From positions 2,048,001 through 2,112,000 of the forward strand of contig CP084166.1 in the NCBI GenBank assembly GCA_021513695.1: a stretch of DNA of 64,000 bases, in the 5' to 3' direction. This document shows, in pieces, positions 1-23,708 of the stretch. A model generated the notes under the pieces. That model saw nothing but the letters and a program-made list of their open reading frames with translations. It was not told the origin of the DNA and searched no databases. The position numbers were made by a program, and so were the translations under genes. Numbering within the stretch: the first letter of the stretch is position 1; every line of letters starts with the position of its first letter. The DNA comes from Candidatus Heimdallarchaeum aukensis (GTDB taxonomy: Archaea; Asgardarchaeota; Heimdallarchaeia; Heimdallarchaeales; Heimdallarchaeaceae).

Positions 1-1
1 T

Positions 2-3000
2 TTAGTAGGTGTAGGAGAGAGTACAGAGCAGTATATTGCTACAATCAGCAGAGAAGAAAAAACGATTACTTATTCCGCTATTCTAAGTTCAGCAGAGGAG
101 CAAGAACAGTGGAAATATTTCTATATTAGCCTTTATCAGCTTGCGAGACATATTCCTAAAGAATTACTTGTAGATAATTATTCAAATGGAAATAAAGAGG
201 TTGATCTATTAGATGAAAATTACCCTGTTTCTGGTATAATTTCTGATGCAAAAATGGTCGTTAATTATGAAGGTTCATATGTGGAAAAAATCATCCAATT
301 AGAAAAAGGAGCAAATCAAAATCTATACATTTCTGACTTGAAATCTACAATTACTAACATCCATAGCGCATATCCTTACGAAAATGCTTTATCTTCTTTG
401 CCTGAGGAAATAAAATGGAAAAAATATGATGTTCCATTTGATGGGTATATTCCTCTTGATAATGTCTATCTTGATGATTTTGACGGTAGTTCGTATTATA
501 TCTACGATGTAGTGGTTTATGTTGATGCTTCCACTTATTCTAAAGTACATTTAACAGTTGAAACTGAGGGATCTTTTGTTCTTTCTAACCGCTACTCTAT
601 AATATTACAAAAGATGGGTTTTTCAAACGAAGTTGTTTCTACAGTCTTTAGCGCACAACAAGGATATACTCCCTTGTATCTTCACGTTGTTTTTCCAAAA
701 ACAGCTTTTAATCAGAATATACGCATTCAATACATCTCCAATGGAGGAGTGGCTATAAGTGCTGAAAACAATAGAGAAGGAGATGCCATATCAGAGTGGT
801 TGATCTCTACTCCTTTCTATTCGGAAAAAAATGAGGACACCGTTGATTATCTTAATTTTATTTCACAAGTTACACCTATGGAAGGAGAGCGATTCGAAAA
901 AAGAGTAGTAGATTCAGAAGGATTTACCCACACAGAAACAATAGAATTTTCTGAATTCACTTTTCCTGGATTTTGTCCTATCTTAGACTTTGTTCCTCAT
1001 GCTGTTCCTTCAGGTTATTCTGTTATTCTCACTACTACGCTCGATTTCGCCAAAAGTTTGAACACTTCCTTAGTTCTACTTCTAAACAAAGAAAGTGGCA
1101 TAACAATACAATCCTTACTTTGGGATGAGACTCCACTTCTTTACATCAATGAAGGAGTATTTAACGAAATTGACTCCGATTTGGAAAATGGTATGATTAC
1201 TATACCTTTGAATAGTGAAGGGTTAACTGTCAACAGTCTCTTTTCTCCTAAAGAAAACAACCCTAATGAGTATGGTTTCATAGAAAACGACCCTGATTAT
1301 AACTTTCATTTTTCATCTTCTGACCCTTATAGTATAAAAACATCCTCTGTTAACCCTGATTCTGTTATTTTGAACAACAAAGGCATTCACAGAATAGTTA
1401 TCCAATTAACCTTTCCTTCTCCTTATAATACAGATTTTGGAATATATTTGGAAAATGTAGATGATAGCGTGCGAACTGTTTTATCTCCCTCAGATAAAGC
1501 AATAGACTTTCATGCAATCGCACAGAAGAACTTTATTCAATTTGAAAACGATCTTCATCAACCTCAAACTCTTGCTCAATTAGAGAAAAACGAGAATACT
1601 TTATTTAAATCACGATATTTCAAAGATGACTATGGTCAATACCATTCCTATAGAATTTATAGTCTTGGCTTTTCTGATGAATACACCTTAGATAAAGGAA
1701 AGAAATGGAAAATATATGATGGTGATACTGATGATTCTAACGATGTTATCTATGAAAGTACAGCTCACTACAATTGGAAACATGTAATAGGAAAGATGAA
1801 TTTTGCAATTGTTATAGATGAAGGAACTCCACAAGTTTTGCAATTGCCTTTTAATTTTCTAGTAGGTTACATGGTCTTTTGTGATTGGCTAGATACAAAT
1901 GGAGATGGATTAGAAGATACATGTGCTCCTTATATAGGTCTAGCAGACCCCTTAGATGCTAGTTCTACTTACGATGATGTAAAAAAAGGTGTAGTGTATA
2001 ATACAGAGGAAGAGAAGAAAATAAGTTATGATGTTACTGATGAACAACAAGCAGAACTCAAGAATCTTACTGTACGCCAATCGTTGATATCTTCTCTTTC
2101 AACTACAGTAATTACAAAAACAGAAGAAACCATCCCCTTATCCTACACTTCTGACGAAATAGCTGCTATTCAAAACAATGGATTAACTCTTGATCGTTAT
2201 CTTCATTCTTTAATAGAAAATGACTATTTGACCTACTCTGAAGATATTGCAAGAGTAGAAATAACTATTAGTTCTTCAAATAATAAAGAAATTGACCTTG
2301 CTTATGATTATGATAAAGAAATATTGTTCACCCACAGTGTTGATAATGCTACAGGAGAAGAAGAAAAAATAGTCTATGATTTTAGATATGACTGTTTTTC
2401 TGTCCTCACTCCTGATGCTCTTGCTAACGACAACTACAGAGTAGATTTTTATACTTTTAATAATAAACTAAGTCTCTATGATACCGATTTGTATAAACTT
2501 AAAGAAACGCCTAATTCTTACGGATTGTTAGATGATCCACAAACTCTTTCACCTATGGTAGTCTTAGAAAATTATAACTATGAAATAAAAGAAACAGTTA
2601 ATAGTCTTGATTCAAAAGATGAAGAAATTTTAAACAATAGTCCAACAACAATTGTAGACGCTTTTGTTCAAGGATTAAGTCTTTCTCAACTAAGCGTGGA
2701 AATGTATGATGCTGAAATAGAGATGGATTATTACAGTTTAGATCTCTTCTATTCTGTTTTCTTTAATGAATATTTGACTCTACAACAATTCTTCTATTCT
2801 CAAGAAACATTAAATAACAACCAGAATTATCAGTATTATCCTACTGGGACAATCCAATTTGCTAAATGGATTAGTTCAATACTTAACTCCTATATAATCC
2901 AACAATCAGACAAATTATTTGATGAATACCAAAACCGTACTTCTCGATATGATTCAGAGAAAAAAGCTATAGCTGCTATGTCCTTTTTGTTAGACCTTAT

Positions 3001-6000
3001 TATTCCTTATCGCGGATTCAAAACCTACGGTTCGGAACCTAAACCAGAAGAGACTCATCACCCACGTTTCTCTAGTTATGTGGACTTCAAATATAGTCTA
3101 GTTATGTTTTGGGGATTAATCTTAGGTAATAGTGCAGGCTGTGGAATACCTAAAAATTCTGTCTCTCTGTTTAGCGAGAGTGAGAGAACTGGAAAACTCT
3201 TGATGATTGACGAATTATGGGATAAAGCTATTAAACACTGGAACTTGGCAGATAAAAGTAGAATAGATGATCCTAGCGAATATTTGCCCTATACTGACCG
3301 AGCTGTAGTAGACAAAATACTGTTTGACGCCAGAGTAAGAGGAGATGAAGCTATGATCGACTGGATAACAAATGAAGATTATAGTGCTGAGGCTTATTAC
3401 ATGCAACCCTATGGAGTGGATTATTCGATCTATTACTGGTTGAAGGCTTTTACTATTCAACAAGGATATGACCCTTATGCTATCAAGGTTTACACCATTG
3501 AAGAGATGAATAGTCAAGAGAGAGAAGATTTTGACGAAAATTATTTTGTTATAGGCGTTCCTGTTTCCACAATCGAAGACCAATATTTAGAATATAACTG
3601 GTTTGTAAGTCTAGATAAAGAAACACGTGTGCCCACTTCTGCTACATCACAACTAATAGACTTTATCCCTCTTGTATTCGGTCAAAGTTCTAATCCACAT
3701 ATAAGAACAATGATGAAAATAATTAAAAGATTAGGAAATGCAGCAAAAGGAGAAAATTTCGGTTATAATACTTTTAGCATGAGTGAATTCAGCTTAATCG
3801 TTACTTTAGAATTTTTAGTTAATCTTGTAGATATAGGCGCTTTACTTATTGATATCAGAGATGCCTATATAGGAGCTACTCCTTTCATACGCAAAATGTC
3901 GCTCATGCAAATACCAATGGATATACTAGATTTGTTCACTCCAGGACCTTTTTCTCTCGTAGGAAATACAATGAATAAAATTTTCAAATCTATAGTCGGA
4001 GACGTTACCTTAGAAGTAAATAGGATAACAAAAACATTTAATTTACTAGATATTGTACAAAATTTCCCAAAAGGAGAGTGGAAAAGCATTGCTCGAGCAG
4101 CAGGAAAATCAGAACTAATGATCTGGATAGTTGGAGCAGCACAAGTGACTTACCGTTTCTCTAAACTAGCCAATCAATTCTATCAATGGTTCTTCTTCCT
4201 CCCGCAAAAGATTTTCATGAGTAGTTTACAAATAACTTTAGGGTCATTCATGATATTTGCCTCTAAAATGATTTATGCCATCAGAAGAATGGATATCGAA
4301 GAAGCAATGTTGTTAAACATTAAAGCGCAAAAATACTTCAACCAAGGACTAGATGATACCGCTAAAATGACAAGAGCTATATTAAGCCATCCAAAAATGC
4401 TAGCAAGATTTGGAACTGAAGAACTTATAGAACGAGCAAATATAGTAGCAAAATATTACATGAACATTATTATAAAGAAAGTAATGGAATTGGAAGCAAC
4501 ATCAAAAGCAATACTAGAATCGGTTGAAAAGTCACGCTTCTATGTTATGATGGCCTTAAGATATGCTACACATATGTACATGAACACCCCAGGAGGAGTA
4601 GGTATACACTTCTCTCCCAATTTAATTGATAATGAGAAAGAAACTGAAGGAATAAGACATTTCAACACCGTGGATAATATTTTGCCAAAATTAGAATATG
4701 AAATAGCAATGTATTACTGGAAGCATGAATATCTAGCGGATGATGAAAAAATAAAAGAGTATAATAGTGAAAAATTCAATTTCAGAGATGTAGAAAGCGC
4801 AAAAATACATATAACTATAGCTTTTTCATCTATTGCTGCAATACATTCGACACCAGAATCATTCCAAAGATATAAAGAACTACTAGAATACACAGATAAG
4901 AGGTTAATAGAAATAAAAAATGAAAAGGGTGAAAATCTAGAGTATACACCTATATGGTGGATTTTACATTTGCCTGTTGATCCCTCGCTACAAAAACTAG
5001 CCCTTAGCCACATATTTGATGAATCACCTGCAGTTTCACTGCTTCTAAAAGTTCTAATGGTAGAGAAAGGTCTTAACGAAGACTTATTAGAAAATAATAT
5101 CGACGATATAGATGAATACAATAAAGAAGTTCATTCCATTTTAGATCAAATTTTATCTTCTTCCCCCCTAAATATAAGTCATAAAGTCTTTATCCTTGAA
5201 AAAGATGAAAAAGGGAATCATATCTGGAAAGCAAGAATTTTAGATTTGTTAGGGCAATCTGAAGGATCATTAACTAAGTTAAGGACACGAGATGAATATA
5301 TTAAGTGGTCTGTAATCGGTAGAACAGGAATAGACTTGTTAGGCCTTTTCGGAAGTGAAGAATTAAAAAACTATTTTCCCAAAGGAGTAAGAAATGCTTT
5401 AACTGCTAGAAATGATCAAACTTCAATAATCTATGAGCTTATATGTATGGGATTATTAGATTTTAGATTTTATACAGATGATAAAAATGTAAAGGATCAA
5501 TTAAAAATTGATTTTCCAGAGCATGACTTTGAAAAAGAACCCAGTATTAGCATTGCTGAATTAGCTAAAAAATATAGTAAATATGATATTCTAGAATTAT
5601 TTGAAAAAAGTAATTTTATTAGACAGACTCTTATAAGTAATGGAGTAGACGGATTAATACACAGTACAAAAATAGGAAAGTCTCTTTATTCTGTTAAAGA
5701 TTCAACGGGAATATTCAATAAAGCTAATTCAAAAAATATTTTATACTCTGTAGCAGCTGAAAATGCATATATAGGTCATGGAAGTGTTATTTATTATTAT
5801 GATAAGCTACAAGGTGATATTATCACGGATATAGATAATAAATTGATATACAATGCTAGATATTATGATCCTACAGCTTCAAAATCACCTAAACCTTTTG
5901 TTCCAGGCGATGCAATATTACTCTATGATTCCAATGTAAATCGTTATCTGTTTTTAAGAACTAATTTTCCTGAGGACACTATGCTAAATCAAAATCAGAA

Positions 6001-8641
6001 ACTAGATGAATATAGTGGTTTTAAAAGAGAAATTAACGTGTTTTGGTTTCAAATAAACAAAGATACAAATGAGGGAGAGATAGTTTATGATACATTAGAA
6101 CACTATTGTTATGAAAATGAAAAACTGAAGGAAGGAATAAAAGTTGTTGGAACGGAGGATATTTTGCAAGAGGTAGATAAGTTTCATCCAAAGAGAAATA
6201 AAATAAGAAGTAGTCAACCTATAATATCAATAGAAGCAAAGCAAAATGGAGGGAACATAGATTACGTTGTCTCAATGGATGAACAACTTCCTTTATTTAG
6301 GTTTATAGGTGGAGATTATTCAACTGCAACAGAAAAAGACATCAATTTTGCTAGTTTTCTTTACCCAAGAAAACATTCCAACGATATTGTTTTCGGATTG
6401 CAAGATGATAACTTAGATTTTATCGATGAAAAGGGTTTATGGCCTATCCATATGGGTTTAAGCCCAGGAAGGTTTACATACAACGTGCAAAACATATATT
6501 TAGATGAGATTAATTCAGCAAAAGCGTTATTGGATAAATTAGATGAATTAGATAACTTGCCTGTAGTAGAAGTTAAAACAAAGGATAATGAATATATAAC
6601 TCGACCAGCAACAGTTCAGGAAGTAAATCAACAGAGAGTATATGAGTTAATTAGATGGTACTCTACAAGTCAAGTGTATACTTATTATGTGTCTAGTTTA
6701 AATAAAGAAAATAAAGCATTTTTGTGCAGAGCATATCTAGATGATTGGAATGCAGCTAAATCGTTAGGTGAAATCATAGAAATAGCAGAAGATACTAATG
6801 GAAATCTATACCAGAAATATGGTTATGAGAATAAACAAGAATATCTAACCTTTAGAATGAATGTTATTCAAACAATAATAAACGAACAAGAACAGTTCTA
6901 TAAATACAAGTTTAAAGATGAAAGTGATTTAACAAAAGAAGAAAAGTTGGTAATATTTCTAAAAGAACAAAAAGAATTTTTTGAAAGATTACATAATGAC
7001 GCTGCTAAAATAGAGGCATTTCAAGAACCATTTTTTTCAAACTTGAGACTAGACATTAAAGAAGTCGATACATATAATGTACTTAATTATCGCAGTTTAG
7101 AATCGTCAATTGAATTACTTTTATTAAATAGATTTGACTCGTATAATAAGATACACTTATTCGAAGGAGATGTACCTTTTTCAAGAAACCCGATGAAATT
7201 CGGTTTCGATAATGTAATTGTCCAAATAGGTACGAGAGCATTCATAAACAAGGTCAAAGAAGAGGGAATATTAGATTTTGATGAAGATAAAAATTCAGTA
7301 TTAGAACTAGCTAATAAAGTATTTAAAAGAAAAACAGTTATAAAACCATTAATCCGCGGACCAATAAAAGCAAAATCAATTGCTTTTCTCCAACATGAAG
7401 AAACAATGGCTAAACTGAACAATTATAAAACATTGCAAAAAATATCCAAAGAAGAAATAAGGCTCTGGAAACTTTACAACAAAAAATTAGATAATGAAAA
7501 AGGCCATTTGACTGTAGAGCAACTATACGAAATAGAAGAAGAGTTCAACAATATAAATGGAAAAAATATAGTAGGAAAACAAGGAGCAGGGATGACAGTA
7601 ATAGAAGATGGAAACACATATGTTGTAAAAATATACAGTCTCATCAGTGATTTAAGATATAATAACAAAATTCATGCAGGTAGTGAGGCAAATAAGTATG
7701 ATATTGCAGAAAGAGTGTTGGGACTAGCACAACACATAAAGTACGTAGCAAAGGAAGGAAGAATATACATTAATTATGCAATGGCAAACATTCTTTATCT
7801 GATAAAAACACTAACAAACGGTAAAATGGAAATAGATGACGTCCAGAATCTAAGGGACCTGGGAAATCCAAAGGAATTAGAAGCTATACTAGTAAATAAT
7901 TTAGGGGAAGAAAGAACAAAAGAAATACTAAATATTTTAGAAGAAGTAACCATAAGAACGAAAAGAAAAATAAAACAAGGAAAAGATTATTCCATAGAAA
8001 ATATAGAAAAAGGACAATCGTTGGCTTTTCAAATTGGATATGTGGATCTGAAAAATATAACCCCTGAGGTAAGAGGAAAATTAAGGCTACAAGGGATGTT
8101 ATTGAGAGAAATCTTGATGTTACTGGATATAATATATGGACTATATTATACAGGAAGAAATTATATGAAACGCCTAGATATTAATTTAGCGCAAACAACA
8201 GTAATTTTCGAAAAAACAACGGAAGAAGGCAAAACAATACTAAAATTAAAAGACGTAAAAACAAGCACAGAACAAGAAATGAATGGAGAGTTCATATCAT
8301 CACTGAACGATTTCGACCAAAAAACAGCATCAATAATAGAAAAACTGGCTGAAACTAAATATTCATCAGTATTTGGACCAGAATTTATGACTAGAGAACA
8401 ATTAAGAAAATTGGTAGATGAAATAATAGAAGAATATGAGAGTATACTAAAATTGAAAATAAGAAAATTCAATGAAATATTAACTCAAGACGATATGGAA
8501 GTAGAACTAGTAGCAAAGAAATTCAAAATAGAAGAATTGCTAAAAATGCTAACACCTAAAGGATTATGGTCAATGTACGAGCAAAAGAAAAGAAATAATG
8601 AAAAAAGAGGACAAACAAAAATAACAGACTTCCTAATTTAA
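2..8641 (+). CDS. Giant hypothetical protein, 5'-partial: frame is open from base 2 to the window edge, so over 2879 aa. Probable surface/membrane-associated protein.
   Basis: Single uninterrupted ORF. I translated bases 2-253 by hand and found no stop, so the gene starts upstream of the window. No catalytic motif recognised. There is a D-x-D-x-N-G-D-G-x-x-D calcium-binding-like motif (DWLDTNGDGLEDT) and a hydrophobic stretch mid-protein (around nt 3800-4300). Cys-poor, Asn/Asp/Tyr-rich. Confidence 0.7.
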   Translation, partial: LVGVGESTEQYIATISREEKTITYSAILSSAEEQEQWKYFYISLYQLARHIPKELLVDNYSNGNKEVDLLDENYPVSGIISDAKMVVNYEGSYVEKIIQLEKGANQNLYISDLKSTITNIHSAYPYENALSSLPEEIKWKKYDVPFDGYIPLDNVYLDDFDGSSYYIYDVVVYVDASTYSKVHLTVETEGSFVLSNRYSIILQKMGFSNEVVSTVFSAQQGYTPLYLHVVFPKTAFNQNIRIQYISNGGVAISAENNREGDAISEWLISTPFYSEKNEDTVDYLNFISQVTPMEGERFEKRVVDSEGFTHTETIEFSEFTFPGFCPILDFVPHAVPSGYSVILTTTLDFAKSLNTSLVLLLNKESGITIQSLLWDETPLLYINEGVFNEIDSDLENGMITIPLNSEGLTVNSLFSPKENNPNEYGFIENDPDYNFHFSSSDPYSIKTSSVNPDSVILNNKGIHRIVIQLTFPSPYNTDFGIYLENVDDSVRTVLSPSDKAIDFHAIAQKNFIQFENDLHQPQTLAQLEKNENTLFKSRYFKDDYGQYHSYRIYSLGFSDEYTLDKGKKWKIYDGDTDDSNDVIYESTAHYNWKHVIGKMNFAIVIDEGTPQVLQLPFNFLVGYMVFCDWLDTNGDGLEDTCAPYIGLADPLDASSTYDDVKKGVVYNTEEEKKISYDVTDEQQAELKNLTVRQSLISSLSTTVITKTEETIPLSYTSDEIAAIQNNGLTLDRYLHSLIENDYLTYSEDIARVEITISSSNNKEIDLAYDYDKEILFTHSVDNATGEEEKIVYDFRYDCFSVLTPDALANDNYRVDFYTFNNKLSLYDTDLYKLKETPNSYGLLDDPQTLSPMVVLENYNYEIKETVNSLDSKDEEILNNSPTTIVDAFVQGLSLSQLSVEMYDAEIEMDYYSLDLFYSVFFNEYLTLQQFFYSQETLNNNQNYQYYPTGTIQFAKWISSILNSYIIQQSDKLFDEYQNRTSRYDSEKKAIAAMSFLLDLIIPYRGFKTYGSEPKPEETHHPRFSSYVDFKYSLVMFWGLILGNSAGCGIPKNSVSLFSESERTGKLLMIDELWDKAIKHWNLADKSRIDDPSEYLPYTDRAVVDKILFDARVRGDEAMIDWITNEDYSAEAYYMQPYGVDYSIYYWLKAFTIQQGYDPYAIKVYTIEEMNSQEREDFDENYFVIGVPVSTIEDQYLEYNWFVSLDKETRVPTSATSQLIDFIPLVFGQSSNPHIRTMMKIIKRLGNAAKGENFGYNTFSMSEFSLIVTLEFLVNLVDIGALLIDIRDAYIGATPFIRKMSLMQIPMDILDLFTPGPFSLVGNTMNKIFKSIVGDVTLEVNRITKTFNLLDIVQNFPKGEWKSIARAAGKSELMIWIVGAAQVTYRFSKLANQFYQWFFFLPQKIFMSSLQITLGSFMIFASKMIYAIRRMDIEEAMLLNIKAQKYFNQGLDDTAKMTRAILSHPKMLARFGTEELIERANIVAKYYMNIIIKKVMELEATSKAILESVEKSRFYVMMALRYATHMYMNTPGGVGIHFSPNLIDNEKETEGIRHFNTVDNILPKLEYEIAMYYWKHEYLADDEKIKEYNSEKFNFRDVESAKIHITIAFSSIAAIHSTPESFQRYKELLEYTDKRLIEIKNEKGENLEYTPIWWILHLPVDPSLQKLALSHIFDESPAVSLLLKVLMVEKGLNEDLLENNIDDIDEYNKEVHSILDQILSSSPLNISHKVFILEKDEKGNHIWKARILDLLGQSEGSLTKLRTRDEYIKWSVIGRTGIDLLGLFGSEELKNYFPKGVRNALTARNDQTSIIYELICMGLLDFRFYTDDKNVKDQLKIDFPEHDFEKEPSISIAELAKKYSKYDILELFEKSNFIRQTLISNGVDGLIHSTKIGKSLYSVKDSTGIFNKANSKNILYSVAAENAYIGHGSVIYYYDKLQGDIITDIDNKLIYNARYYDPTASKSPKPFVPGDAILLYDSNVNRYLFLRTNFPEDTMLNQNQKLDEYSGFKREINVFWFQINKDTNEGEIVYDTLEHYCYENEKLKEGIKVVGTEDILQEVDKFHPKRNKIRSSQPIISIEAKQNGGNIDYVVSMDEQLPLFRFIGGDYSTATEKDINFASFLYPRKHSNDIVFGLQDDNLDFIDEKGLWPIHMGLSPGRFTYNVQNIYLDEINSAKALLDKLDELDNLPVVEVKTKDNEYITRPATVQEVNQQRVYELIRWYSTSQVYTYYVSSLNKENKAFLCRAYLDDWNAAKSLGEIIEIAEDTNGNLYQKYGYENKQEYLTFRMNVIQTIINEQEQFYKYKFKDESDLTKEEKLVIFLKEQKEFFERLHNDAAKIEAFQEPFFSNLRLDIKEVDTYNVLNYRSLESSIELLLLNRFDSYNKIHLFEGDVPFSRNPMKFGFDNVIVQIGTRAFINKVKEEGILDFDEDKNSVLELANKVFKRKTVIKPLIRGPIKAKSIAFLQHEETMAKLNNYKTLQKISKEEIRLWKLYNKKLDNEKGHLTVEQLYEIEEEFNNINGKNIVGKQGAGMTVIEDGNTYVVKIYSLISDLRYNNKIHAGSEANKYDIAERVLGLAQHIKYVAKEGRIYINYAMANILYLIKTLTNGKMEIDDVQNLRDLGNPKELEAILVNNLGEERTKEILNILEEVTIRTKRKIKQGKDYSIENIEKGQSLAFQIGYVDLKNITPEVRGKLRLQGMLLREILMLLDIIYGLYYTGRNYMKRLDINLAQTTVIFEKTTEEGKTILKLKDVKTSTEQEMNGEFISSLNDFDQKTASIIEKLAETKYSSVFGPEFMTREQLRKLVDEIIEEYESILKLKIRKFNEILTQDDMEVELVAKKFKIEELLKMLTPKGLWSMYEQKKRNNEKRGQTKITDFLI

Positions 8642-8664
8642 AAATAGTAAATAAAGAAAAAAAC

Positions 8665-8768
8665 TGGTGCGTCAACCGGGAATTGAACCCGGGCCGTCGA
8701 ATCTCTTCTTGAGGCTTCTAGACGCCATATAATGGAAGTCCGACGTACTACCACTATACTATTGACGC
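8665..8768 (-). tRNA. tRNA, probably Gly(TCC), with about 30-nt intron at canonical 37/38 position and encoded CCA
   Basis: Reverse complement folds as acceptor GCGTCAA/TTGACGC, T-arm CCGGG-TTCAATT-CCCGG, anticodon stem TCGGA/TTCGA (two G-U pairs) with loop CTTCCA|intron|A, then discriminator A and CCA. Anticodon assignment is tentative. Confidence 0.6.
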
Positions 8769-8970
8769 TTTCTTTGTTTTTTTCTTTCTATTCTTTTGAT
8801 TACCGATTTCTTTTTAACTTTTATGGATTTTGTCTTTTTCTTTTTTTTCTTCTTTCTCTTCTTTTTTTTATTTTTAATTTATGTTTCTCTTCTTTTTTTT
8901 ATTTGTTTAAAATCAATATATTTAAGTAACGTTGTTTTGTTTCTGACTTAAGATATACTAACATTATTTA

Positions 8971-8976
8971 GAGGAG
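8971..8976 (+). promoter_or_regulatory. Shine-Dalgarno-like GAGGAG 8 nt upstream of rpl11 ATG
   Basis: ttagaggagaatatatt ATG. Confidence 0.5.
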
Positions 8977-8984
8977 AATATATT

Positions 8985-9482
8985 ATGAGTTCAGATACAG
9001 TTACTGTTGATCTTTTAGTAGATGGTGGTAAAGCTACCCCTGGTGGTGCTATGGGCCCTGCTCTTGGTCCTACTGGTGTTAATATCAAGCAAGTTGTCGA
9101 TGAAATTAACAAGCAAACTCAAGCTTATAAAGGTATGAAGGTTCCTGTTACTGTTACCGTTTTCAAGAAAACACGTGAGTTTACCCTTTCCGTTGGTATT
9201 CCTCCTGCTTCTGCTCTTATTTTAAAAGAAGCTGGTATTTCCAAGGGTTCTGGTACTCCTAATACTGAGGTTGTTGGTAATATTACTTTTCAACAGTTGA
9301 TCAATGCTGCTAAAGCTAAATGGCCTGATCTTACTGCTGCTACCCTTGCTGCTGCTTGTAAAGAGTTGCTTGGGACCATGGTTTGTATGGGTATTACTTG
9401 TGATGGTAAAGCTCCTCGTGTAGTTCAGAAGGAGATAGATGAAGGAGTATATGATGATATTCTCTCTGAGAATGAGGATTAA
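8985..9482 (+). CDS. rpl11: 50S ribosomal protein L11
   Basis: 165 aa; conserved L11 N-terminal domain (PGGAMGPALGPTGVNI, KVPVTVTV) and C-terminal domain. Strong NNT codon preference. Confidence 0.93.
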   Translation: MSSDTVTVDLLVDGGKATPGGAMGPALGPTGVNIKQVVDEINKQTQAYKGMKVPVTVTVFKKTREFTLSVGIPPASALILKEAGISKGSGTPNTEVVGNITFQQLINAAKAKWPDLTAATLAAACKELLGTMVCMGITCDGKAPRVVQKEIDEGVYDDILSENED

Positions 9483-9558
9483 ATTTCGTTATAAACAAAG
9501 TTTATGAATGCTAGTAAAAAATTAAACATGAAGTATATTTAAAATAGAGGTATAGATA

Positions 9559-9753
9559 ATGAGCAAATTTATTAACAATACTCGTTCTTTCGTTATTCGT
9601 AGTAGACGTTTACTTCGTCATGCTAAAAAGCCTAGTCGTCGAGAGCTTTCCATGACTGCTAAAATTACTGCTTTAGGTATTATAGTCATTGGATTAATCG
9701 GTTGGGTTCTTCATCTTATGTTCAACGTTATACTTGACGCTATTAACAAATGA
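9559..9753 (+). CDS. secE: Protein translocase subunit SecE (Sec61 gamma)
   Basis: 64 aa. Basic N-terminus (RRLLRHAKKPSRRE) then a single TM helix (ALGIIVIGLIGWVLHLMF), matching archaeal SecE. Adjacent to spt5. Confidence 0.8.
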   Translation: MSKFINNTRSFVIRSRRLLRHAKKPSRRELSMTAKITALGIIVIGLIGWVLHLMFNVILDAINK

Positions 9754-9799
9754 TATTATTCTTTCTTACGTTTTACTTAAACCTCGTGGAGATGAAATT

Positions 9800-10294
9800 A
9801 TGCCAATATATGCATTGAGAACAGCAATAGGGCAGGAACAATCTGTTTCTGAGTATTTAGCTCGTCGAGCAGATAAACGACCAGAGCTTGATATTAAAGC
9901 TATTTTGGTTACTGGTTCTCTTAAAGGTTATATCTTTATAGAATCAAGTTCAATTGATCACATAGAGTTACTAGTTGAAGGAGTCAGACACGTAAGGAAA
10001 CGTCCTCGTTCTTCTAGAGCTGAAGAGATACCTATTAATGAGCTAGAACATTTTCTTATGCCTCGTCCTGTTATTGAAGGGGTAAACCCTGGTGATATAG
10101 TAGAAATCGTCTCTGGTCCCTTTAAGGGTTCTCGAGCACGTGTCACAGATATTCATTCTGCAAAAGAAGAAGTTACCTTGGAGCTTTTAAGTGTTGATCT
10201 TCAAATACCCGTTACTATTTCTGGAGAATCAATACGCGTTATCGAAAAGGCCGCAACTGAAAAGGAAGAGGAAGAAGGAGAGTATCTTTTATAG
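9800..10294 (+). CDS. spt5: Transcription elongation factor Spt5 (NusG homolog)
   Basis: Start moved to the internal ATG (MPIYALRTAIGQEQ...), which is preceded by GGAG 8 nt upstream and matches archaeal Spt5 N-termini. NGN domain plus KOW motif (IVEIVSGPFKGSRARV). Confidence 0.85.
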   Translation: MPIYALRTAIGQEQSVSEYLARRADKRPELDIKAILVTGSLKGYIFIESSSIDHIELLVEGVRHVRKRPRSSRAEEIPINELEHFLMPRPVIEGVNPGDIVEIVSGPFKGSRARVTDIHSAKEEVTLELLSVDLQIPVTISGESIRVIEKAATEKEEEEGEYLL

Positions 10295-10326
10295 ATAACT
10301 AATTATTTTTTGCCTATTTTTCTTTC

Positions 10327-12684
10327 TTGTTCAGAACTTTATTCTTTTTTTGTTCCTTAAGCGTAACCTTTTTTATTTTTCCTCAATACATACTCTGGAT
10401 AGCAAAATTGACCTCCTATATTCCTTTATCTCTTTCTGATGTTGTGCATAAAATAAGTATCTATGAGTCTGAATTGAATTTATTTAATAGTTCCAAGAAA
10501 AAAAACTTTGGTATCTACTATACCCCTGACTTTATAGTTGATTATATTGTTTCTAACGCTTTTCTTAGATATTTATCGAAGTTTGACAGCGATATTCCGC
10601 AATTAGTTAAGAAAATCTTGTCTCTTAACTCAAACCTCTCAAATCATGAAAAAAAGATTCTAATATATTTACACCAACATATTTTTCCAAATATAACTGT
10701 CTGTGATATATCGATGGGTTGGGGTGTCTTCCTCATCCATACATTTGATTACTTATTTTTACTGCGTAAAAACGTATTTATTCTTTTATATTCTCCTTCT
10801 TCTTCTGAATTAGAAGAGGAAAGCAAAAAAATCGCTATAGATATCATTCAGAATAGTCTTTTTGGTGCTGATCTTTCCGAAAAGGCTATAGAATTGGCTC
10901 AATTAAAGTTATTTAAACAAGTAATGGAAGCTCTAAATTGTTCTAATATTAAACTTCCTCGTGCTAATTTTAGACAAGGAAATAGTTTACTAGGTTTTAT
11001 TAATAAAGAATATATTAATGGAAAGGATTCTACAAACTACTGGGTTGAACTTTTTTTATCTAAATTTAAAAAGAAAACATTAATCACAGAAGTTTATAAC
11101 TTTTTAAGAAAACAAAAACTAGTTCATTGGAAATCATTTTTTCCTCAATTGAGAAATCGAGAAGGTTTTGATATTATCGTAGGAAATCCCCCCTACATCA
11201 ATGTTAAACGTTTACCACAAATTGAGAGATATATTTATGCAAGCATTTATGAAACTTATAATTCCAACGGTGATCTATCTAACGTTTTCTGGGAACGTGC
11301 ATTATCAATATTACGTCCCTCTGGAGTTGTTTCTTTTATAGTTCCTCGATACTGGTTAGAGGGTAAAGATAGCAATAAATTGAGATATTTTATCCAGAAG
11401 AATTCTAGAATCCTTGAAATCATGGACTTCCAAAGTAATAGGAGTTTGTTTTCTGAGAGCGAAAAAAAGTTGGGGGTCGATGTTTCTATTGTAACTTTAG
11501 AAAAAAGAAAAGAAAAAGGATTGTTTGACGTTTATATTTTACAAAATTCTGAGAGAATAACCTCTGTCAATAAACATAATTTTCTTGTTAAACAAATCGA
11601 TCAAGAATCCCTCTCCTCTTCAAGATGGAACTTTAATGTTCCTAAACTGGTTGAATATCTCGATGAACATAGTTGTTTAACACTTGGGGGAGATAAAGAA
11701 AATAATATTCCTGGTGTGTGTTATATCGGGAAAGGTTGTTCAACAGGTAATAATTCAATATTTACTTTAAAAAAAATTAAAGATAATATATTTGAAGGAT
11801 ATAAAAAAGTTAAACTTTCTCTCCCTGAAAATGAACAAAGAGTTTTAAGAAGATTAATTAAAAATAGTGATATTACCCGCTATTTTCTTAAAAAACAAGA
11901 GCGATATTGGATATTTCTCAAAGACAAGTCTATTTCAGATTACCCTATGATTGAGCAGTATCTACATAAGTATATCGAGAAACTCAAAGAAACACAAAAA
12001 AAATATGGTAGTAAGAACTTCTTTGACTATGCAGCCTATCGCTCTTTAAATTTAATTGATAGTGTTCCAAAAATCGTAACGCCATATCAGTCTTCAATTA
12101 ATAGATTTGCTTTAGTTAAAAGTAAAGCGCCCCTAACAATTAATGAAACAGATGTTATCACTCTTGTTATCAAACAAGAAATGCGTTCTAAGTTGGACTG
12201 GTTTTTTCTTCTTTCTCTTCTAAATTCTGAACTTTTACATTATTATATTAAACACAGAAACAAAAAAATTTACTATCTCTACGATTTTAGAACAAGTCAA
12301 ATTACCACTCTACCTATTCAAGTCTCTCACAACCAAAAAGTGGTAAGTTTCTTTTCTGAATGTATGTACAGAGCACAAGCACTTCAATTGGATGATAGAC
12401 TATATATGCAAGTCAGATCTAAACTCGAGTTTATAATAAATTCTTTGGTTTTTGAAATTTATCTTAGAGAGAAACTATCTTCAGAATTAGAAGAAGTGTT
12501 GCAAGAAATTGTCTTTACGCAGAAACCTGAAGTCATTAATTTTAAACGCGAAAATGAATTTCTTTCAAAAATATTGTCCTCTCCTACAATTATTAAACAA
12601 CTAAGACAGATTTACTCAAATAAGGAAGTAACCTCTGTAGTTAAAGATTTAAGTTTACCCTATTCAAAATTTATTATAAAGTGA
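10327..12684 (+). CDS. Gamma-class N6-adenine DNA methyltransferase (Eco57I/TaqI-like, with TaqI-type C-terminal specificity domain). No nuclease domain, apparently orphan.
   Basis: Motif X (FGIYYTPDFIVDYIV), motif I-like (DISMGWGVFL), motif IV (IVGNPPYI) in gamma-class order. About 450-aa C-terminal TRD-like region. Start codon uncertain (first ATG used). Confidence 0.75.
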   Translation: MFRTLFFFCSLSVTFFIFPQYILWIAKLTSYIPLSLSDVVHKISIYESELNLFNSSKKKNFGIYYTPDFIVDYIVSNAFLRYLSKFDSDIPQLVKKILSLNSNLSNHEKKILIYLHQHIFPNITVCDISMGWGVFLIHTFDYLFLLRKNVFILLYSPSSSELEEESKKIAIDIIQNSLFGADLSEKAIELAQLKLFKQVMEALNCSNIKLPRANFRQGNSLLGFINKEYINGKDSTNYWVELFLSKFKKKTLITEVYNFLRKQKLVHWKSFFPQLRNREGFDIIVGNPPYINVKRLPQIERYIYASIYETYNSNGDLSNVFWERALSILRPSGVVSFIVPRYWLEGKDSNKLRYFIQKNSRILEIMDFQSNRSLFSESEKKLGVDVSIVTLEKRKEKGLFDVYILQNSERITSVNKHNFLVKQIDQESLSSSRWNFNVPKLVEYLDEHSCLTLGGDKENNIPGVCYIGKGCSTGNNSIFTLKKIKDNIFEGYKKVKLSLPENEQRVLRRLIKNSDITRYFLKKQERYWIFLKDKSISDYPMIEQYLHKYIEKLKETQKKYGSKNFFDYAAYRSLNLIDSVPKIVTPYQSSINRFALVKSKAPLTINETDVITLVIKQEMRSKLDWFFLLSLLNSELLHYYIKHRNKKIYYLYDFRTSQITTLPIQVSHNQKVVSFFSECMYRAQALQLDDRLYMQVRSKLEFIINSLVFEIYLREKLSSELEEVLQEIVFTQKPEVINFKRENEFLSKILSSPTIIKQLRQIYSNKEVTSVVKDLSLPYSKFIIK

Positions 12685-12708
12685 TTTTACCGATACAATT
12701 TTCTATTT

Positions 12709-13146
12709 TTAAGTCAATAATTTGCCTAATTTAATAGCTGCTCTTTCTAAATCTAAAAATAGTAAACCAAGTTTTGTGTCTGGTGTAGTGGAAACGGTGA
12801 TAACTGCATTTTCTCCTGCTTGCATTGTAACAATATATCCATTATCTCCTTCAATAAGAATCTTCTTTACTTTTCCTTTTCTTAATTCTGAAACCACACG
12901 TTCCCCTAGAGACAAGCTTGCTGCAGTCATTGCTGAAATGCGAGTTTCATCAATGTTGTCCAACATTAATGAAGCTATGGGTAACCCTTCGACAGAAACA
13001 ACCGCGATATCTAAAATCCCTGGGGACTTGAATCTTAATTCACTTATACAATCAGTTATTTCTTCACTAATTTTGTTTGTTAGAATTCCAAAAGACAATA
13101 TTTTCACTCCTAATTTTTCCTTTGATTGTTCTCCTTTTTTATACAA
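12709..13146 (-). CDS. Roadblock/LC7 (MglB-like) domain protein
   Basis: 145 aa; pattern DIAVVSVEGLPIAS ... AASLSLGERV ... ILIEGDNGYIVTMQAGENAVITV typical of the Roadblock/LC7 fold. Confidence 0.7.
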   Translation of the reverse strand: MYKKGEQSKEKLGVKILSFGILTNKISEEITDCISELRFKSPGILDIAVVSVEGLPIASLMLDNIDETRISAMTAASLSLGERVVSELRKGKVKKILIEGDNGYIVTMQAGENAVITVSTTPDTKLGLLFLDLERAAIKLGKLLT

Positions 13147-13434
13147 AAATAGAACTTATAAAGACCACAAAATGTTAGTGATAATTCAAAAAGAAAATAG
13201 TTTTTAGCAGTAGGCACTAACCTTTCTTCTAAAGTTTTTGCAATATGTCTGTCTCAACCCTCTCCTTTCATTGTATGTTTAGGTTGAGTTACCAAGTGAT
13301 TAAACTTCCTTTAGTTTTCTCTCTTGAAAGACTGAGTGCGAAAAACTTACGTAAAAAAGTAAATTATATCAATCGACACACTTAAATCATTTAATAATCG
13401 GTTGAGGACAAAGGTTAGATTTTGGTGAATCAGT

Positions 13435-15645: not shown

Positions 15646-16335
15646 ATGGTGCTTTTAGAGATTCTTGTACTCCTTGTAGGATATATCTGTGGCTCGATTC
15701 CCGTAGGTTTCTTAATAGGAAAAATAGGTTATAATATTGATGTAAGAAAACATGGTAGTGGAAATATAGGAATGGCAAATGTAATGCGTCTATGCGGAAA
15801 AAAAGCAGGAATAATGACAATGATAGGTGATATGGTAAAAGGAACAATTGCCGTTCTAAGTGGGAGAATATTAATATGGACAAAAAATTTTGAAGGATTA
15901 GGAAAAATAGGACAAGTAGAATTAACAAATGAAGGGTTATTTCTGTCATTAATAGTCTTTACAACAATAATAGGGCATAGTTTTCCAATATGGTTAAAGT
16001 TTAAAGGAGGGAAATCAGCAAGTGTGGGAGGAGGAGCAATATTAGGAATAAACCCAATAGCATTTGTAATAATAATGAGTTTATGGATTGTTATACTTAA
16101 AAAAACTAAATATACTTCACTTTCAAATTTAGTAGCAGGTATGCTCTATCCTCCATTGTTATGGGTGTTCGCGGGAACTGATCCTTTCTTTAACAACAAT
16201 TGGCAAGCAGCAATAGTAGGAGCAATATGTTTGTTGTTTGTAATCTGGAGACATAGGGAAAATGTGTCAAGGTTAATAAAAGGAACAGAAAGAAAAATTG
16301 GACAAAAAGAAAAAATAGAAGAGAAAAAAGACTAG
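15646..16335 (+). CDS. plsY: Glycerol-3-phosphate acyltransferase PlsY family (acyl-phosphate:G3P acyltransferase), bacterial-type
   Basis: YICGSIPVGFLIGK ... HGSGNIGMANVMRLCGKKAG ... GDMVKG matches PlsY signature blocks. Multi-TM. Confidence 0.8.
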   Translation: MVLLEILVLLVGYICGSIPVGFLIGKIGYNIDVRKHGSGNIGMANVMRLCGKKAGIMTMIGDMVKGTIAVLSGRILIWTKNFEGLGKIGQVELTNEGLFLSLIVFTTIIGHSFPIWLKFKGGKSASVGGGAILGINPIAFVIIMSLWIVILKKTKYTSLSNLVAGMLYPPLLWVFAGTDPFFNNNWQAAIVGAICLLFVIWRHRENVSRLIKGTERKIGQKEKIEEKKD

Positions 16336-16431: not shown

Positions 16432-17178
16432 ATGAGAGAAAAGAATATAATGAAGAGAAAAATCTCAAAGTCAATCAGTGCACTAGAAATCATAGGTATA
16501 ATAATAGTTGCGTCAGCAGCAACAATATTGATAGTAACAAACATTCAACTAGTAAAAGTAGAAGAGATTTTTCTTGAAAAAGAGTACATAAAAGGAGAGA
16601 ATGTGACATTAAAAGTCCAAATAAATAAAAAAATAGAAGAGATCTCAGAAATAGATTATTGTCTGGTGGGGATAAAATCAGAAAATTACTCTTATGAGGG
16701 AGTGTTCAAAGCAAACATAGAAAAAATAGAAATAGATAATTTAAAAACAAAAAGAACAAACATCACAGTATCATTAAAACCATTAATTAAAAATGAAAAT
16801 GGATATTATGCATTAAACGTAGGAAATTATGAAATAGAAAGCCTAGAGTTAAAAATAGGAAGAAAAATAATCAAGCATAGATTAAATGCAAATTTCGTTA
16901 TAAAACATGGAGAAGAGGAAGAAAGAATAAAAAATGGAAATTTTGAACAAGAAGGAGATTATTGGATAATAGAATACAATAAAGAAAAATTTACACTAAA
17001 TTTTAAAGAAAATGAGTATACAGATGGAAAAGCACTAATCTTAAGAAAAAATGAGGAAAAGACAGAAACAAATCAAACATCTATATTGACTATGACACAG
17101 AAAATTAAACTAAAAGATATACACTACCTAGAAATGGATGTAAAAGTAATAAGTGAAAATGAGAGTAAAGTAAATTAA
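16432..17178 (+). CDS. Secreted or surface protein with pilin-like (class III-like) N-terminal signal/anchor
   Basis: N-terminus is basic (KRKISKSIS) followed by ALEIIGIIIVASAATILIV, Glu about +5 from a possible cleavage site. Remainder hydrophilic and K/E/N-rich. Confidence 0.5.
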   Translation: MREKNIMKRKISKSISALEIIGIIIVASAATILIVTNIQLVKVEEIFLEKEYIKGENVTLKVQINKKIEEISEIDYCLVGIKSENYSYEGVFKANIEKIEIDNLKTKRTNITVSLKPLIKNENGYYALNVGNYEIESLELKIGRKIIKHRLNANFVIKHGEEEERIKNGNFEQEGDYWIIEYNKEKFTLNFKENEYTDGKALILRKNEEKTETNQTSILTMTQKIKLKDIHYLEMDVKVISENESKVN

Positions 17179-17180
17179 GT

Positions 17181-18032
17181 GTGAAAATTAACAATAAAGA
17201 AAGAAAACATGTGCAAGAAATAGATGAAAAAAGCAAAATGCATCAAAAAATAATTTTTGGAGAAATAAAAGAAGAAAATGAAGAAGCAAACATATCAATA
17301 GAAATAACAACAACAGAAGAAATAAACAAAGATTTTGAAATAATAATTGACAACGTGTCAATAAAAGCTTATGAAAAAAAGATTTTCATAGCAATATTAG
17401 ATAATAACTGGAAAATAGCACAAGGAAAGGTAATAAGAAACGAGACAGAGATAGCAGTAGAAAGAGCATCAAAATATTTCGAGAAGAACCTGGGTATAAA
17501 ACTAATACCACTGGTAAGAGTAGAGTGGAAACTAGAAAGTGAAAACAAAATAATAAGCTTAGATGAGATGCATGAAAAAGCAATAAAAGATGCAGAAAAA
17601 TTGTTGGGATTAAAACAAGAGTGGATAGTAGAAAAAGGAAGATCAGAAAAAAATAATGGGTTCGATATGCTAAACGCTTTCACAAATAAAACAGGAGAAC
17701 ATTTCGGATTTATATTCGGAGGAGAAAATGCAGCCTTCCACTTCGCTCAATCAAATTACCTGCAAAAAGCACTAAATGAAGCAGGAATGGGATACATACA
17801 AGTAACAGTGATAGATGAATGGGCAGAAAGCCTGGTACAACATGAAGTAAGCCATATATTCGGAGCAAAAGATAGAGACAGTAGAGAGTATGAACCAAGT
17901 GTGATGACAAAACAATTGACAACAGAAGAAGTAATAAAAGCATTTATAGAAGGAAAAATGTGGTTACAATGCAATAATTGGTTAATAGAAGACATGAAAA
18001 TAATGATAGAAAATGTAGAACTATTCAAATAA
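17181..18032 (+). CDS. Putative zincin (Asp-zincin/metzincin-like) metallopeptidase domain protein
   Basis: GTG start 2 nt after the upstream stop. C-terminal HEVSHIFGAKD (HExxHxxGxxD) followed by EPSVMT (Met-turn-like). No signal peptide of its own. Confidence 0.5.
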   Translation: MKINNKERKHVQEIDEKSKMHQKIIFGEIKEENEEANISIEITTTEEINKDFEIIIDNVSIKAYEKKIFIAILDNNWKIAQGKVIRNETEIAVERASKYFEKNLGIKLIPLVRVEWKLESENKIISLDEMHEKAIKDAEKLLGLKQEWIVEKGRSEKNNGFDMLNAFTNKTGEHFGFIFGGENAAFHFAQSNYLQKALNEAGMGYIQVTVIDEWAESLVQHEVSHIFGAKDRDSREYEPSVMTKQLTTEEVIKAFIEGKMWLQCNNWLIEDMKIMIENVELFK

Positions 18033-19797: not shown

Positions 19798-19998
19798 ATA
19801 GAGTTTTTGTCTTGTTGAAATGATAGAATTAAATTGATTTTTAATATTTTTGTTTGTCGTGTCCTCTTATTAATAATGATTTTCTTTATATTCTGTTATT
19901 ATCTTACAGAGATAAATTTAAAAAATAAATGTTAACTCGTTTCTTAATCCATATAGAAAAACTGCTCGTTTCCTACTTTGTTCATTTGCTTAAAATTT

Positions 19999-20084
19999 CG
20001 CGGGGATTGCCGAGCGGTCAAAGGCGCTGGACTTAGGATCCAGTCCTTAGTGGTTCGAGAGTTCGAATCTCTCTCCCCGCACCA
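19999..20084 (+). tRNA. tRNA-Leu(TAG), long variable arm, CCA encoded; integration target
   Basis: Acceptor GCGGGGA/TCCCCGC, anticodon arm CTGGA-CTTAGGA-TCCAG, T-arm GAGAG-TTCGAAT-CTCTC. 3' end duplicated 2.8 kb downstream. Confidence 0.85.
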
Positions 20085-20095
20085 TTTCTTCTTTT
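20057..20095. repeat. 39-bp direct repeat, copy 1 (attL-like): last 28 nt of tRNA-Leu plus 11 nt
   Basis: gagagttcgaatctctctccccgcaccatttcttctttt, identical to 22887-22925. Confidence 0.85.
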
Positions 20096-21080
20096 ATCTT
20101 TATATATTTCCTTTTCCTTTTTTCTTTATGGTTGCTTTTTCTCCTACTTTTTCTGTTATCGATTCTTTCTCTTTTCTTCACGACCCTCAATTTGTTTTTT
20201 TACTTCAGACTTTTATTGATTCTTCCCCTGACTTTTTTTCGTTTCTTTCTCTTCTTTCTTCCTCTTCTCCCTCTTCTCTTTCTTCTTTTGTAAGGGACAT
20301 TTTTTTACTTATTTCTTTTGATGATCCTTTTTCTCTTTCTTCTTCCTCTTTTCATTTTTTTGATTCTCATTTTAATTGGAAATCTTTTCTTTCCTTTTTC
20401 CTTGATTCTTTTTCTTCCCGTAAATTTTCTCTTTGCAATTTTTCTTTATTTTATGCTCATTTTTCTTTTTTGCATTTTTCTATTCCTAATTTTTTATCTG
20501 ATTTTGCATTCTTTTTTTTATCTGATTTAGATTTTAATTTTTTATCTTCTTCCTTTTTCAGTTCTTTTTTCTCTTTTGAATCTTTTTATGATTTTTTCTT
20601 TTCTTATTTTGATTCTTTTTTACCTTCCTATCGTCTCCTTATGCGTCATCGTTTTAATTCTTCTCCTAACCATTTTTTTCCTCCTTTTCTTCCATTCCTT
20701 CGTTCTGAAGAGGTTAGCTCTTATTTTAAGTCCTTTCTGTATATTTGTGGCTTTGATAAATCTGTTTTCGGTTTTGGTTCTTCTCGTGCTAAGGTTGATC
20801 CTCGTCAATTTGCTGAGTCTTTTCAAACTTCTTGGATTAAATTGCACTTTCATTTAGACAAAATGCGTTTTCCTTTTACTCTTTCTTCTACTCGTGTTCT
20901 TTCTCTTTATCATCCTGGTCGTTATGTTTCTTCTGTTAATCCAAGTAATGGTTTTGACGATCTAATTGTTTTTTCTTCCTCCTCTTCCATTCCATCCTCT
21001 CTTTCCTCTTCTCCTTCTTCTCTTTCTTCCTTTTCTTCTCCCGTTTCTCCCTGCTTTACTATTTGTGTTATTGAGCAAAA
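20096..21080 (+). other. About 1-kb polypyrimidine (C+T) tract on + strand
   Basis: Plus strand is overwhelmingly T/C with only scattered purines. Open in several frames on both strands because stop codons need purines (or T on the complement). Confidence 0.8.
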
Positions 21081-21081
21081 A

Positions 21082-23012: not shown

Positions 23013-23708
23013 TTATTTTTCTCTTATTGTTCCGTAAATTCTCATATATCTTGGTTTTATTTTTTTTCTTTTGATGTATCTTTTTATTATCGTCACATCT
23101 ACTATTATTTTTACTCCTATCATTATCATCAATATTGTTTCTATTGTTCCATTGAATACCAGTAGATAAATTAGGAATTCTTCATCTCCTGCTGCATTAG
23201 CTATTGAAGCTATTACTGAAACAATTATTGAATAGAATCCGAATATTTGGTATAATATACTTCCCACTTTAATATCTGTTATTTTTTTTATTCTTGTTAG
23301 CATTAGATCTATTTTTCTGAATCCTATTGCTCTTGACGCTAGACTTATTAGAATCGCAAAGCTTCCGAAAACCACACTTCCTATAGTGAATGGTTTTAAT
23401 ATTTCTCCTATTGCATAAATCAACAAATATGTTCTTCCTTGCATTCCTTCCTTTCTGACGTGGTCTTTAAAGTATAGGTCTGCTATTCCTCCGAAGCTTA
23501 ATGCTATTGGTATTAAGCTTAGAGCTATTACTGCAGCAAAAATATAATCAAAAAACCAATTTACTGCTCTTAAGTATTGTATTGTCCTGTTCGACAGATT
23601 TATTGCTGCTGCTATTGTAAACAAAATGCTTCCCGTTATTGCTAAAAAAGAAAATTTGTTTATTTCTGTGTTAAATATTTTCTTCTGCTTTTCTTCGTTT
23701 GAGACCAT
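23013..23708 (-). CDS. Hypothetical membrane protein, paralog of 27285-27950
   Basis: 231 aa multi-TM. Shared blocks with the 27285 protein (..GFG..F...F......R.EG, basic KRK-rich C-terminal tail). Confidence 0.6.
   Translation of the reverse strand: MVSNEEKQKKIFNTEINKFSFLAITGSILFTIAAAINLSNRTIQYLRAVNWFFDYIFAAVIALSLIPIALSFGGIADLYFKDHVRKEGMQGRTYLLIYAIGEILKPFTIGSVVFGSFAILISLASRAIGFRKIDLMLTRIKKITDIKVGSILYQIFGFYSIIVSVIASIANAAGDEEFLIYLLVFNGTIETILMIMIGVKIIVDVTIIKRYIKRKKIKPRYMRIYGTIREK

Follow-up and report, generated by a model that had tools for sequence, protein, structure and literature searches.

The window analysed here comprises 64,000 nt of the genome of Candidatus Heimdallarchaeum aukensis (GenBank assembly GCA_021513695.1, contig CP084166.1, forward-strand positions 2,048,001 to 2,112,000), and its left edge cuts through a giant open reading frame (ORF), which is open on the plus strand from nt 2 to a stop codon at nt 8639-8641 and spans 2,879 codons. 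The ORF very probably belongs to an aloposon, an integrated mobile element with giant genes in tandem, and constitutes the 3' half of the downstream one in the Ca. H. aukensis copy, which lies at a tRNA-Gly(TCC) gene. The window also carries intron-containing tRNA genes and the genes for ribosomal protein L11, SecE and Spt5, which mark it as archaeal chromosome. The first-pass annotation had seen in the ORF a protein typical of small-genome or symbiotic archaea, a view that has to be abandoned: the host belongs to the Asgard archaea, and its closed genome measures 3,081,793 bp. Ten of the proteins encoded in the window match Ca. H. aukensis entries exactly.

The entry for the gene in the list of predicted ORFs (254..8641, 2,795 aa) is the first-ATG version only, and the earlier proposal that the frame is open from base 2 and the protein larger than 2795 aa was borne out by two homologues. 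The first is a partial protein (P0001) from a "Hodarchaeales" metagenome-assembled genome (MAG), the only relative obtained in a word-indexed search with the whole protein. It is encoded on a contig of 8,052 nt (L001), which is short and broken at both ends inside the giant gene; the protein reaches 139 residues upstream of the window start, and the frame continues to the end of the contig, at least 163 codons past the window start, with no stop. The second, found in a scan of species-representative genomes, is a full-length homologue from Ca. H. endolithica PR6 (closed genome), where it forms a single ORF of 5,541 codons. Residue 1 of the window protein aligns near residue 2678 of the PR6 protein, and from this position and the length of the PR6 ORF it follows that the whole gene has about 5,540 codons, of which the last 52% fall inside the window. 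Neither a splitting of the gene by a frameshift nor a stop just upstream of the window with a nearby start was seen in these ORFs. The reading frame is intact in all three alleles (window, Hodarchaeales contig and PR6), and the ratio of non-synonymous to synonymous divergence (dN/dS) is 0.07-0.58 across all segments of the gene; being low in every part, it argues against a chance ORF. The window protein is poor in Cys (0.3%) and rich in Asn (6.5%), Asp (6.7%) and Tyr (6.1%), as first described. The feature is real, and its original description was largely correct.

Aloposons are the only non-viral integrated elements yet described in Heimdallarchaeia, according to a 2024 survey (PMC11529989). 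The original report (Wu et al. 2022, Nat Microbiol 7:200, PMC8813620) describes tandem giant genes (Otus, Ephialtes) in the aloposons of Heimdallarchaeum, encoding proteins of 3,000-6,000 aa, and integration with a tRNA gene downstream of the giant genes, and it treats Aloposon2 (endolithica) and Aloposon3 (aukensis) as a single conserved element inserted at a different tRNA gene in each species; it also mentions truncated giant-gene homologues elsewhere in the genome. The locus agrees with the first three of these points. The PR6 giant gene is preceded by another ORF, at least 654 aa of which are visible, that ends 2 nt before the ATG of the 5,541-aa ORF. A tRNA gene lies downstream of the giant gene both in the window and in PR6, and the N-terminal part of the gene is 93-100% identical between aukensis and PR6 at the amino acid level, while the genes downstream of the element are unrelated. 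Nothing in the window or in PR6 contradicts membership of the aloposon giants. Only the last 2,879 codons of the downstream giant are visible in the window, and its twin lies outside. The upstream twin in PR6 (L007 3-1967) runs off the start of its locus; its C-terminus, QALILSFSLFIGSLTFI followed by RKR, is a membrane anchor, and its last 654 aa have no similarity to the downstream giant protein. The close spacing of the twin's stop and the downstream start suggests coupled translation. The ORF is almost certainly part of the published Aloposon3 gene itself.

The architecture of the protein is best seen in the full-length PR6 homologue. Its N-terminus, MQKIKSKMNTFLGKLNKRSLVITGVALFISVIVILQSF, is a signal anchor, the one segment whose score marks it clearly as a membrane helix; next come about 3,900 strongly acidic residues (net charge -301, Lys plus Arg 7%), and past a hydrophobic block the last 1,430-1,450 aa are charge-balanced (Lys plus Arg 14%). 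The window protein accordingly comprises an N-module, a hydrophobic junction block and a C-module, whose coordinates are collected in Table 1. The N-module is the distal third of the acidic, non-repetitive region, and an extracellular location is probable for it. The first-pass annotation had noted a hydrophobic block mid-protein; it is present at about aa 1258-1430 and includes the motif DIRD..I...PF.R..S..QIPMDI.D.FT, and its segments reach membrane-helix scores that are only marginal (2.2-4.4) on a scale calibrated with known membrane and soluble proteins from the window. With a single span, the marginal one at aa 1404-1427, the C-module would be placed in the cytoplasm; without any span it would form the distal end of a protein tethered by its N-terminus. 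N-glycosylation sequons, the density of which was tried as an indicator of topology, are depleted in both modules. The C-module holds a better conserved core at aa 1901-2350. No ribosome-binding motif supports an internal start at the MM codons before the junction, and no internal repeats were found in the whole 5,541-aa PR6 protein, which is unusual for a giant surface protein.

Comparison of the three alleles divides the gene in two. The window and the Hodarchaeales contig are 100% identical at the nucleotide level over nt 1-3832, as well as over 487 nt further upstream, and identity then falls to 65-80%; past the first breakpoint it is still 0.88-0.93 for nt 3962-4321, with a sharp drop to 0.70 starting at nt 4322. 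The PR6 allele has a nucleotide identity of 0.82-0.98 from nt 3482 to its own breakpoint at nt 4682, so that the two breakpoints (nt 3832-3950 with the contig, nt 4682 with PR6) are discordant. The identity of the N-terminal part to PR6 given above equals the baseline for the genome, 96.8% at the amino acid level (7 orthologues). In the C-terminal part, amino acid identity is 41-80% in all three allele pairs, and distances among the alleles are roughly equal. Synonymous divergence (dS) is 0 (contig) and 0.065-0.15 (PR6) in the N-terminal part versus 0.6-1.5 in the C-terminal part, with dN/dS values of 0.07-0.18 (PR6) and 0.18-0.56, respectively. The gene is a two-part mosaic, in which the N-module tracks the genome and the C-module exists as at least three deeply diverged alleles, the borders lying in or just after the junction block. 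The jump in dS, combined with dN/dS below 1, suggests old functional alleles that were joined to a common N-terminal part by recombination. Identity as an aloposon giant gene and mosaic anatomy, taken together, are very probably correct.

Block-wise mosaics of diverged alleles joined at conserved sequence are likewise known from pilE/pilS of Neisseria and vlsE of Borrelia. These systems differ from the giant gene, for which no donor cassette was found elsewhere in the 64-kb window, and whose variation is seen between strains. The truncated giant-gene fragments mentioned in PMC8813620 could serve as donors. A term search in the text of Wu et al. 2022 did not find the mosaic, the codon change point, the anatomy of anchor and junction, or the 36-codon remnant in PR6 that is described below.

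The two parts of the gene also differ in codon style. At four-fold degenerate sites along the ORF, the fraction of A increases from 0.32 to 0.52, and up to 0.77 at the 3' end, and that of T decreases from 0.50 to 0.29. Likelihood change-point analysis placed the single best change point at codon 1296 (support interval 1190-1331), with a log-likelihood ratio of 33.9 versus a maximum of 10.4 in shuffled sequences. The flip from T-ending to A-ending codons proposed at first pass is therefore real, but is located 45% into the visible ORF, not one third of the way. A side effect of amino acid composition was ruled out as its cause, as the switch persists at four-fold sites. The change point coincides with the hydrophobic junction block and with the change in protein composition. 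All three alleles have the switch, at the same junction, and the window and PR6 agree to the residue in their formal change point. That it is common to all three alleles suggests that the pool of C-modules has long been A-rich.

The codon switch invites another explanation, namely that the two modules were once separate genes, or resided in different genetic backgrounds, and were then fused, the switch being a fossil of the fusion and unrelated to any selection for diversity. The same-residue change point in the window and PR6, coinciding with the change in protein composition, is what a fusion would leave behind, and both codon styles occur among other genes of the genome. Fusion alone leaves unexplained the at least five-fold jump in dS at discordant breakpoints between otherwise identical strains, and a distant marine-sediment fragment (P0072, see below) already spans both sides of the junction in one frame. 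As a complete account of the gene a fusion is rather unlikely, but it is compatible with a mosaic generated by recombination, the two not being exclusive, and it may well explain the codon styles.

Variation in codon style is a wider feature of the window. At four-fold sites its genes, on both strands, have A/(A+T) values as low as 0.07 (31897-32835) and 0.09 (L11) and as high as 0.93. The genes showing this wide spread include 8985-9482, 16432-18032, 23013-24593, 30470-31516 and 31897-32835. As it occurs on both strands, the spread has a cause tied to the coding strand and not to replication; it may be the expression level, the origin of the gene or mutation linked to transcription.

The giant gene is carried by a mobile element associated with tRNA genes and does not belong to the ordinary surface genes of the chromosome. 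In PR6, a tRNA-Asn(GTT) gene with a 42-nt intron takes the position of the tRNA-Gly(TCC) gene of the window, about 32 nt past the giant-gene stop. The syntenic region of PR6 (L010), located by an exact look-up of SecE, has host flanks 96.6-97.9% identical to the window at the nucleotide level and the order Cas3-Cas4-Cas1-Cas2, CRISPR array, two genes, tRNA-Gly, L11, SecE, Spt5, methylase; there is no giant gene at this tRNA-Gly/L11 site. A remnant of its tail (Table 1) is found there, which encodes ELLKMLTPKGLWSMYKQKKRNNEKRGQTKITDFLI followed by a stop and is preceded by unrelated, stop-containing DNA, and the PR6 giant gene at tRNA-Asn ends with FKIENLLKIFKTK and a stop, without the 36-codon tail. 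Two other strains, with host flanks about 98% and 96% identical, lack any trace of the element: a tRNA-Gly(GCC) is separated by a 23-nt spacer from a tRNA-Gly(TCC) that has no intron. This pattern suggests that in the PR6 lineage the element formerly occupied the tRNA-Gly site, where about 130 nt of its right end remained when it moved. The ORF would have been cut within its 3' end, at window nt 8533-8550, with the final codons and the stop supplied by the remaining site. The remnant fits a move of the element from tRNA-Gly to tRNA-Asn with such a cut; to assume a deletion in the PR6 copy plus an independent loss at tRNA-Gly would be less economical. Archaeal elements that target tRNA genes by SSV-type and pTN3-type integrases likewise insert at the 3' side of the tRNA and are known from occupied, empty and remnant sites. 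They differ in that no integrase is detectable here in the part of the element seen, and that the junction falls in the giant ORF, about 110 nt short of the tRNA, instead of in the tRNA itself.

Two further observations concern this insertion site. The intron of tRNA-Gly(TCC) is 30-32 nt long in aukensis and PR6, where aloposon sequence adjoins, and is missing at the clean sites (L011 100-174, L013 123-197), which may be a coincidence or may be tied to the idea that tRNA introns interfere with integration. To the left of tRNA-Gly/L11 in PR6 (L010 1-6199), the CRISPR array beside the Cas3-Cas4-Cas1-Cas2 operon contains at least 45 copies of GTTAAAATTGGACTAATATAGGATTGAAAT; with this Cas/CRISPR island, the tRNA-Gly site seems to be a hot spot for different islands.

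Table 1. Features of the giant gene and its insertion site (window coordinates)
Feature	Position (nt)	Strand	Characteristics
Last 2,879 codons and stop of the aloposon downstream giant gene	2..8641	+	Full gene about 5,540 codons, start outside the window
N-module, aa 1-1257	2..3772	+	T-ending codons (A at four-fold sites 0.32, T 0.50); conserved between strains
DTNGDGLEDT, aa 631-640, calcium-loop-like DxNxDG pattern	1892..1921	+	Single occurrence
Hydrophobic junction block, aa 1258-1430	3773..4291	+	Long hydrophobic/amphipathic helices; change point at codon 1296 inside
First breakpoint versus the Hodarchaeales contig (L001)	3832..3950	+	First mismatch nt 3833, next 3949, after at least 4.3 kb of perfect identity
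C-module, aa 1431-2879	4292..8638	+	Charge-balanced, helix-rich, A-ending codons (A at four-fold sites 0.52-0.77), Lys plus Arg 13.5%
Breakpoint versus the PR6 allele	4682..4801	+	Nucleotide identity 0.93-0.97 just before, 0.43 inside, 0.54-0.88 after
Last 36 codons of the ORF	8533..8641	+	96% identical sequence survives alone beside PR6 tRNA-Gly
tRNA-Gly(TCC), 30-nt intron	8665..8768	-	3' CCA end faces the giant gene, 23 nt past its stop; insertion site of the element

Searches for domains revealed little. The earlier statement that the protein has no recognisable enzymatic motif was confirmed, domain libraries and PDB sequence searches being empty at permissive thresholds. The window protein gave no match to Pfam, NCBIfam, PADLOC or PDB sequences (E-values up to 1, 1, 0.1 and 1, respectively) and one non-significant match to PHROGs (E 0.19); the N-terminal half of the PR6 protein did not match Pfam or PADLOC, and PDB searches with a single sequence and with a three-sequence profile returned chance matches to DDRGK1 only (E about 3). 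AlphaFold2 models had a mean confidence score (predicted local distance difference test, pLDDT) of 30.5 for aa 1230-2399 (two sequences) and 30.9 for aa 1-1000 (single sequence); at this low confidence they would have a helix-rich junction and a mixed alpha/beta C-terminal part. The TSP3-like calcium-binding motif reported at first pass is present at aa 631-640, but the DxNxDG pattern is at chance level (one seen versus 0.15 expected by shuffling, P=0.14) and no match to Pfam TSP_3 was obtained at E up to 1, so that this assignment does not hold. Thrombospondin type 3 and other calcium-repeat proteins have repeated DxDxDG loops that match the profile, whereas the giant protein has one pattern only.

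Homologues are equally scarce. An exhaustive HMMER search of 1.84 billion cluster representatives with a profile of aa 1230-2399 yielded three proteins only, all of them the same gene or its fragments: P0001, a chimeric fragment resembling PR6, and a marine-sediment fragment of 304 aa (P0072). The latter aligns across the junction block, with 47% identity over the first hydrophobic helix and weaker similarity over the rest, and contains the junction motif. A profile of the junction block alone found two short fragments, one of them beyond the HMMER set. In the distant fragments P0072 and P0073 nothing but the junction block is conserved, and it is the most conserved element of the family. The second of these fragments (P0073, L009 55-1294, also from marine sediment) is called as two overlapping genes, 55-798 and 791-1294, which suggests a frameshift or sequencing error. 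Viral contigs, metagenome contigs (two scans) and tblastn searches of phages and plasmids contained no relative, and the giant-protein family appears to be effectively an orphan.

The first-pass annotation had proposed a giant surface or host-interaction protein. Apart from the symbiotic context already discarded, a surface location is plausible for most of the protein, given the signal anchor and the acidic region of about 3,900 aa in PR6 and the C-terminal anchor of the twin. In the model that we favour, the N-terminal anchor would tether the giant protein, which would be exposed on the cell surface alongside the twin with its own membrane anchor. The C-modules would be old functional variants swapped by homologous recombination at the conserved junction, and their diversity may be kept by balancing or frequency-dependent selection. 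The protein would probably serve the element in a surface-linked role, for instance recognition, exclusion or attachment, the specificity of which the C-module would determine. For the whole of this explanation, an aloposon giant gene of mosaic structure with a surface-linked role, we estimate a probability of about 0.8. The functional reading of the protein is held much more tentatively. More speculative still is the specific proposal that the C-terminal 1,450 aa form an exchangeable specificity cassette of the aloposon, with ancient alleles under frequency-dependent selection swapped at the hydrophobic junction; such a cassette would set cell recognition or the incompatibility and exclusion of elements, the right-hand cut would fall inside the ORF, and insertion sites would supply the last codons and the stop.

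Several points weigh against this explanation. Neither homology nor structure backs any function, with the 1.84 billion representatives searched by HMMER and an AlphaFold2 pLDDT of about 31. Only three alleles are available, one of which comes from the partial MAG contig. Both codon styles are native to the genome (0.07-0.93), so the switch need not mean a foreign origin. The mid-protein helices are marginal as membrane spans, and the C-module could be cytoplasmic or outside. The aukensis twin, the four upstream genes and the left end of the element all lie outside the window; the four genes would be found tens of kb upstream of its start, and likewise of the start of PR6 locus L007.

A literature search brought up no functional work following on the description of the aloposon giants. 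The identity of the gene has already been published, and the mosaic and the PR6 tail remnant are modest new leads. If the proposal is true, a specificity cassette would act in the archaeal lineage closest to eukaryotes. The split at the junction shows experimenters which region to test for specificity, and the locus lets population geneticists test selection for diversity.

An improbable alternative is a polymorphic toxin or contact-dependent inhibition effector such as CdiA or Rhs, in which a conserved delivery region is joined, across a conserved junction, to a variable toxic C-module. These proteins are likewise very large and exported, with a conserved bulk and a sharp border to a variable C-terminus that is exchanged by recombination, and the giant gene shares with them its size, the N-terminal export signal and a sharp border, marked by a conserved motif block, at which conserved sequence gives way to variable sequence. 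It differs from them in having no room for an immunity gene, as the tRNA begins 23 nt past the stop, and in lacking internal repeats and any FHA, YD, VENN or toxin domain in Pfam, NCBIfam and PADLOC. The variable modules are very long (about 1,450 aa) and homologous to one another over their full length, not short unrelated toxins, and dN/dS in the C-terminal part is 0.18-0.56 throughout.

The signal anchor, acidic bulk and very large size would also suit a giant adhesin or S-layer-type protein encoded by an ordinary host gene on the chromosome, outside any mobile element. This is very improbable, since the gene stands at different tRNA genes in two species with otherwise syntenic flanks, the site is empty in close strains and holds a remnant at the old PR6 position, and the protein has no repeats, unlike typical adhesins. 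Still less credit is given to an assembly artefact, a chimeric joining of reads from two populations, for which the Hodarchaeales contig, short and broken at both ends inside the gene, might speak: the independent Logan assembly of SRR15988954 matches the window from 1284 to 13345, across the junction, without a mismatch, and the closed PR6 genome shows the same architecture and change point, with all alleles in frame. Targeted hypermutation of the 3' part by a diversity-generating retroelement or similar system, suggested by the confinement of variability to the A-rich 3' part, is the least credible and was rejected on the substitution spectrum, which is ordinary (per-base involvement A 0.40, T 0.43, G 0.58 and C 0.71, transition/transversion ratio 1.0) and has no excess at A, and the variable tract of 4.5 kb is far above known variable repeats and contains indels and signs of purifying selection.

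Some other features of the window were noted outside the giant gene. Near the element are genes for a Roadblock/LC7 protein (12709-13146, minus strand), a bacterial-type glycerol-3-phosphate acyltransferase PlsY (15646-16335, plus strand) and a RuBisCO large-subunit-like protein (33029-34276, plus strand). Two adjacent plus-strand ORFs in different frames, 16432-17178 and 17181-18032 (248 and 283 aa, A at four-fold sites 0.78-0.79), correspond to a single zinc metalloprotease of 527-539 aa in Ca. H. endolithica and related MAGs, and the gene appears to be frameshifted or split in Ca. H. aukensis. A 967-codon ORF without a Pfam match (19978-22881, plus strand) has a T fraction of 0.68 at four-fold sites and, locally, an AT skew of -0.40; a tRNA-Leu(TAG) gene (20000-20084) overlaps the listed start, so that translation must begin further downstream. 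An intergenic sequence of 116 nt is 85% identical between window positions 35023-35135 and an unrelated PR6 locus (L007 22320-22435); Rfam gives a weak tRNA-like match to 35025-35096 (22.8 bits, below threshold), and the sequence may be a degenerate tRNA or a tRNA-derived repeat.

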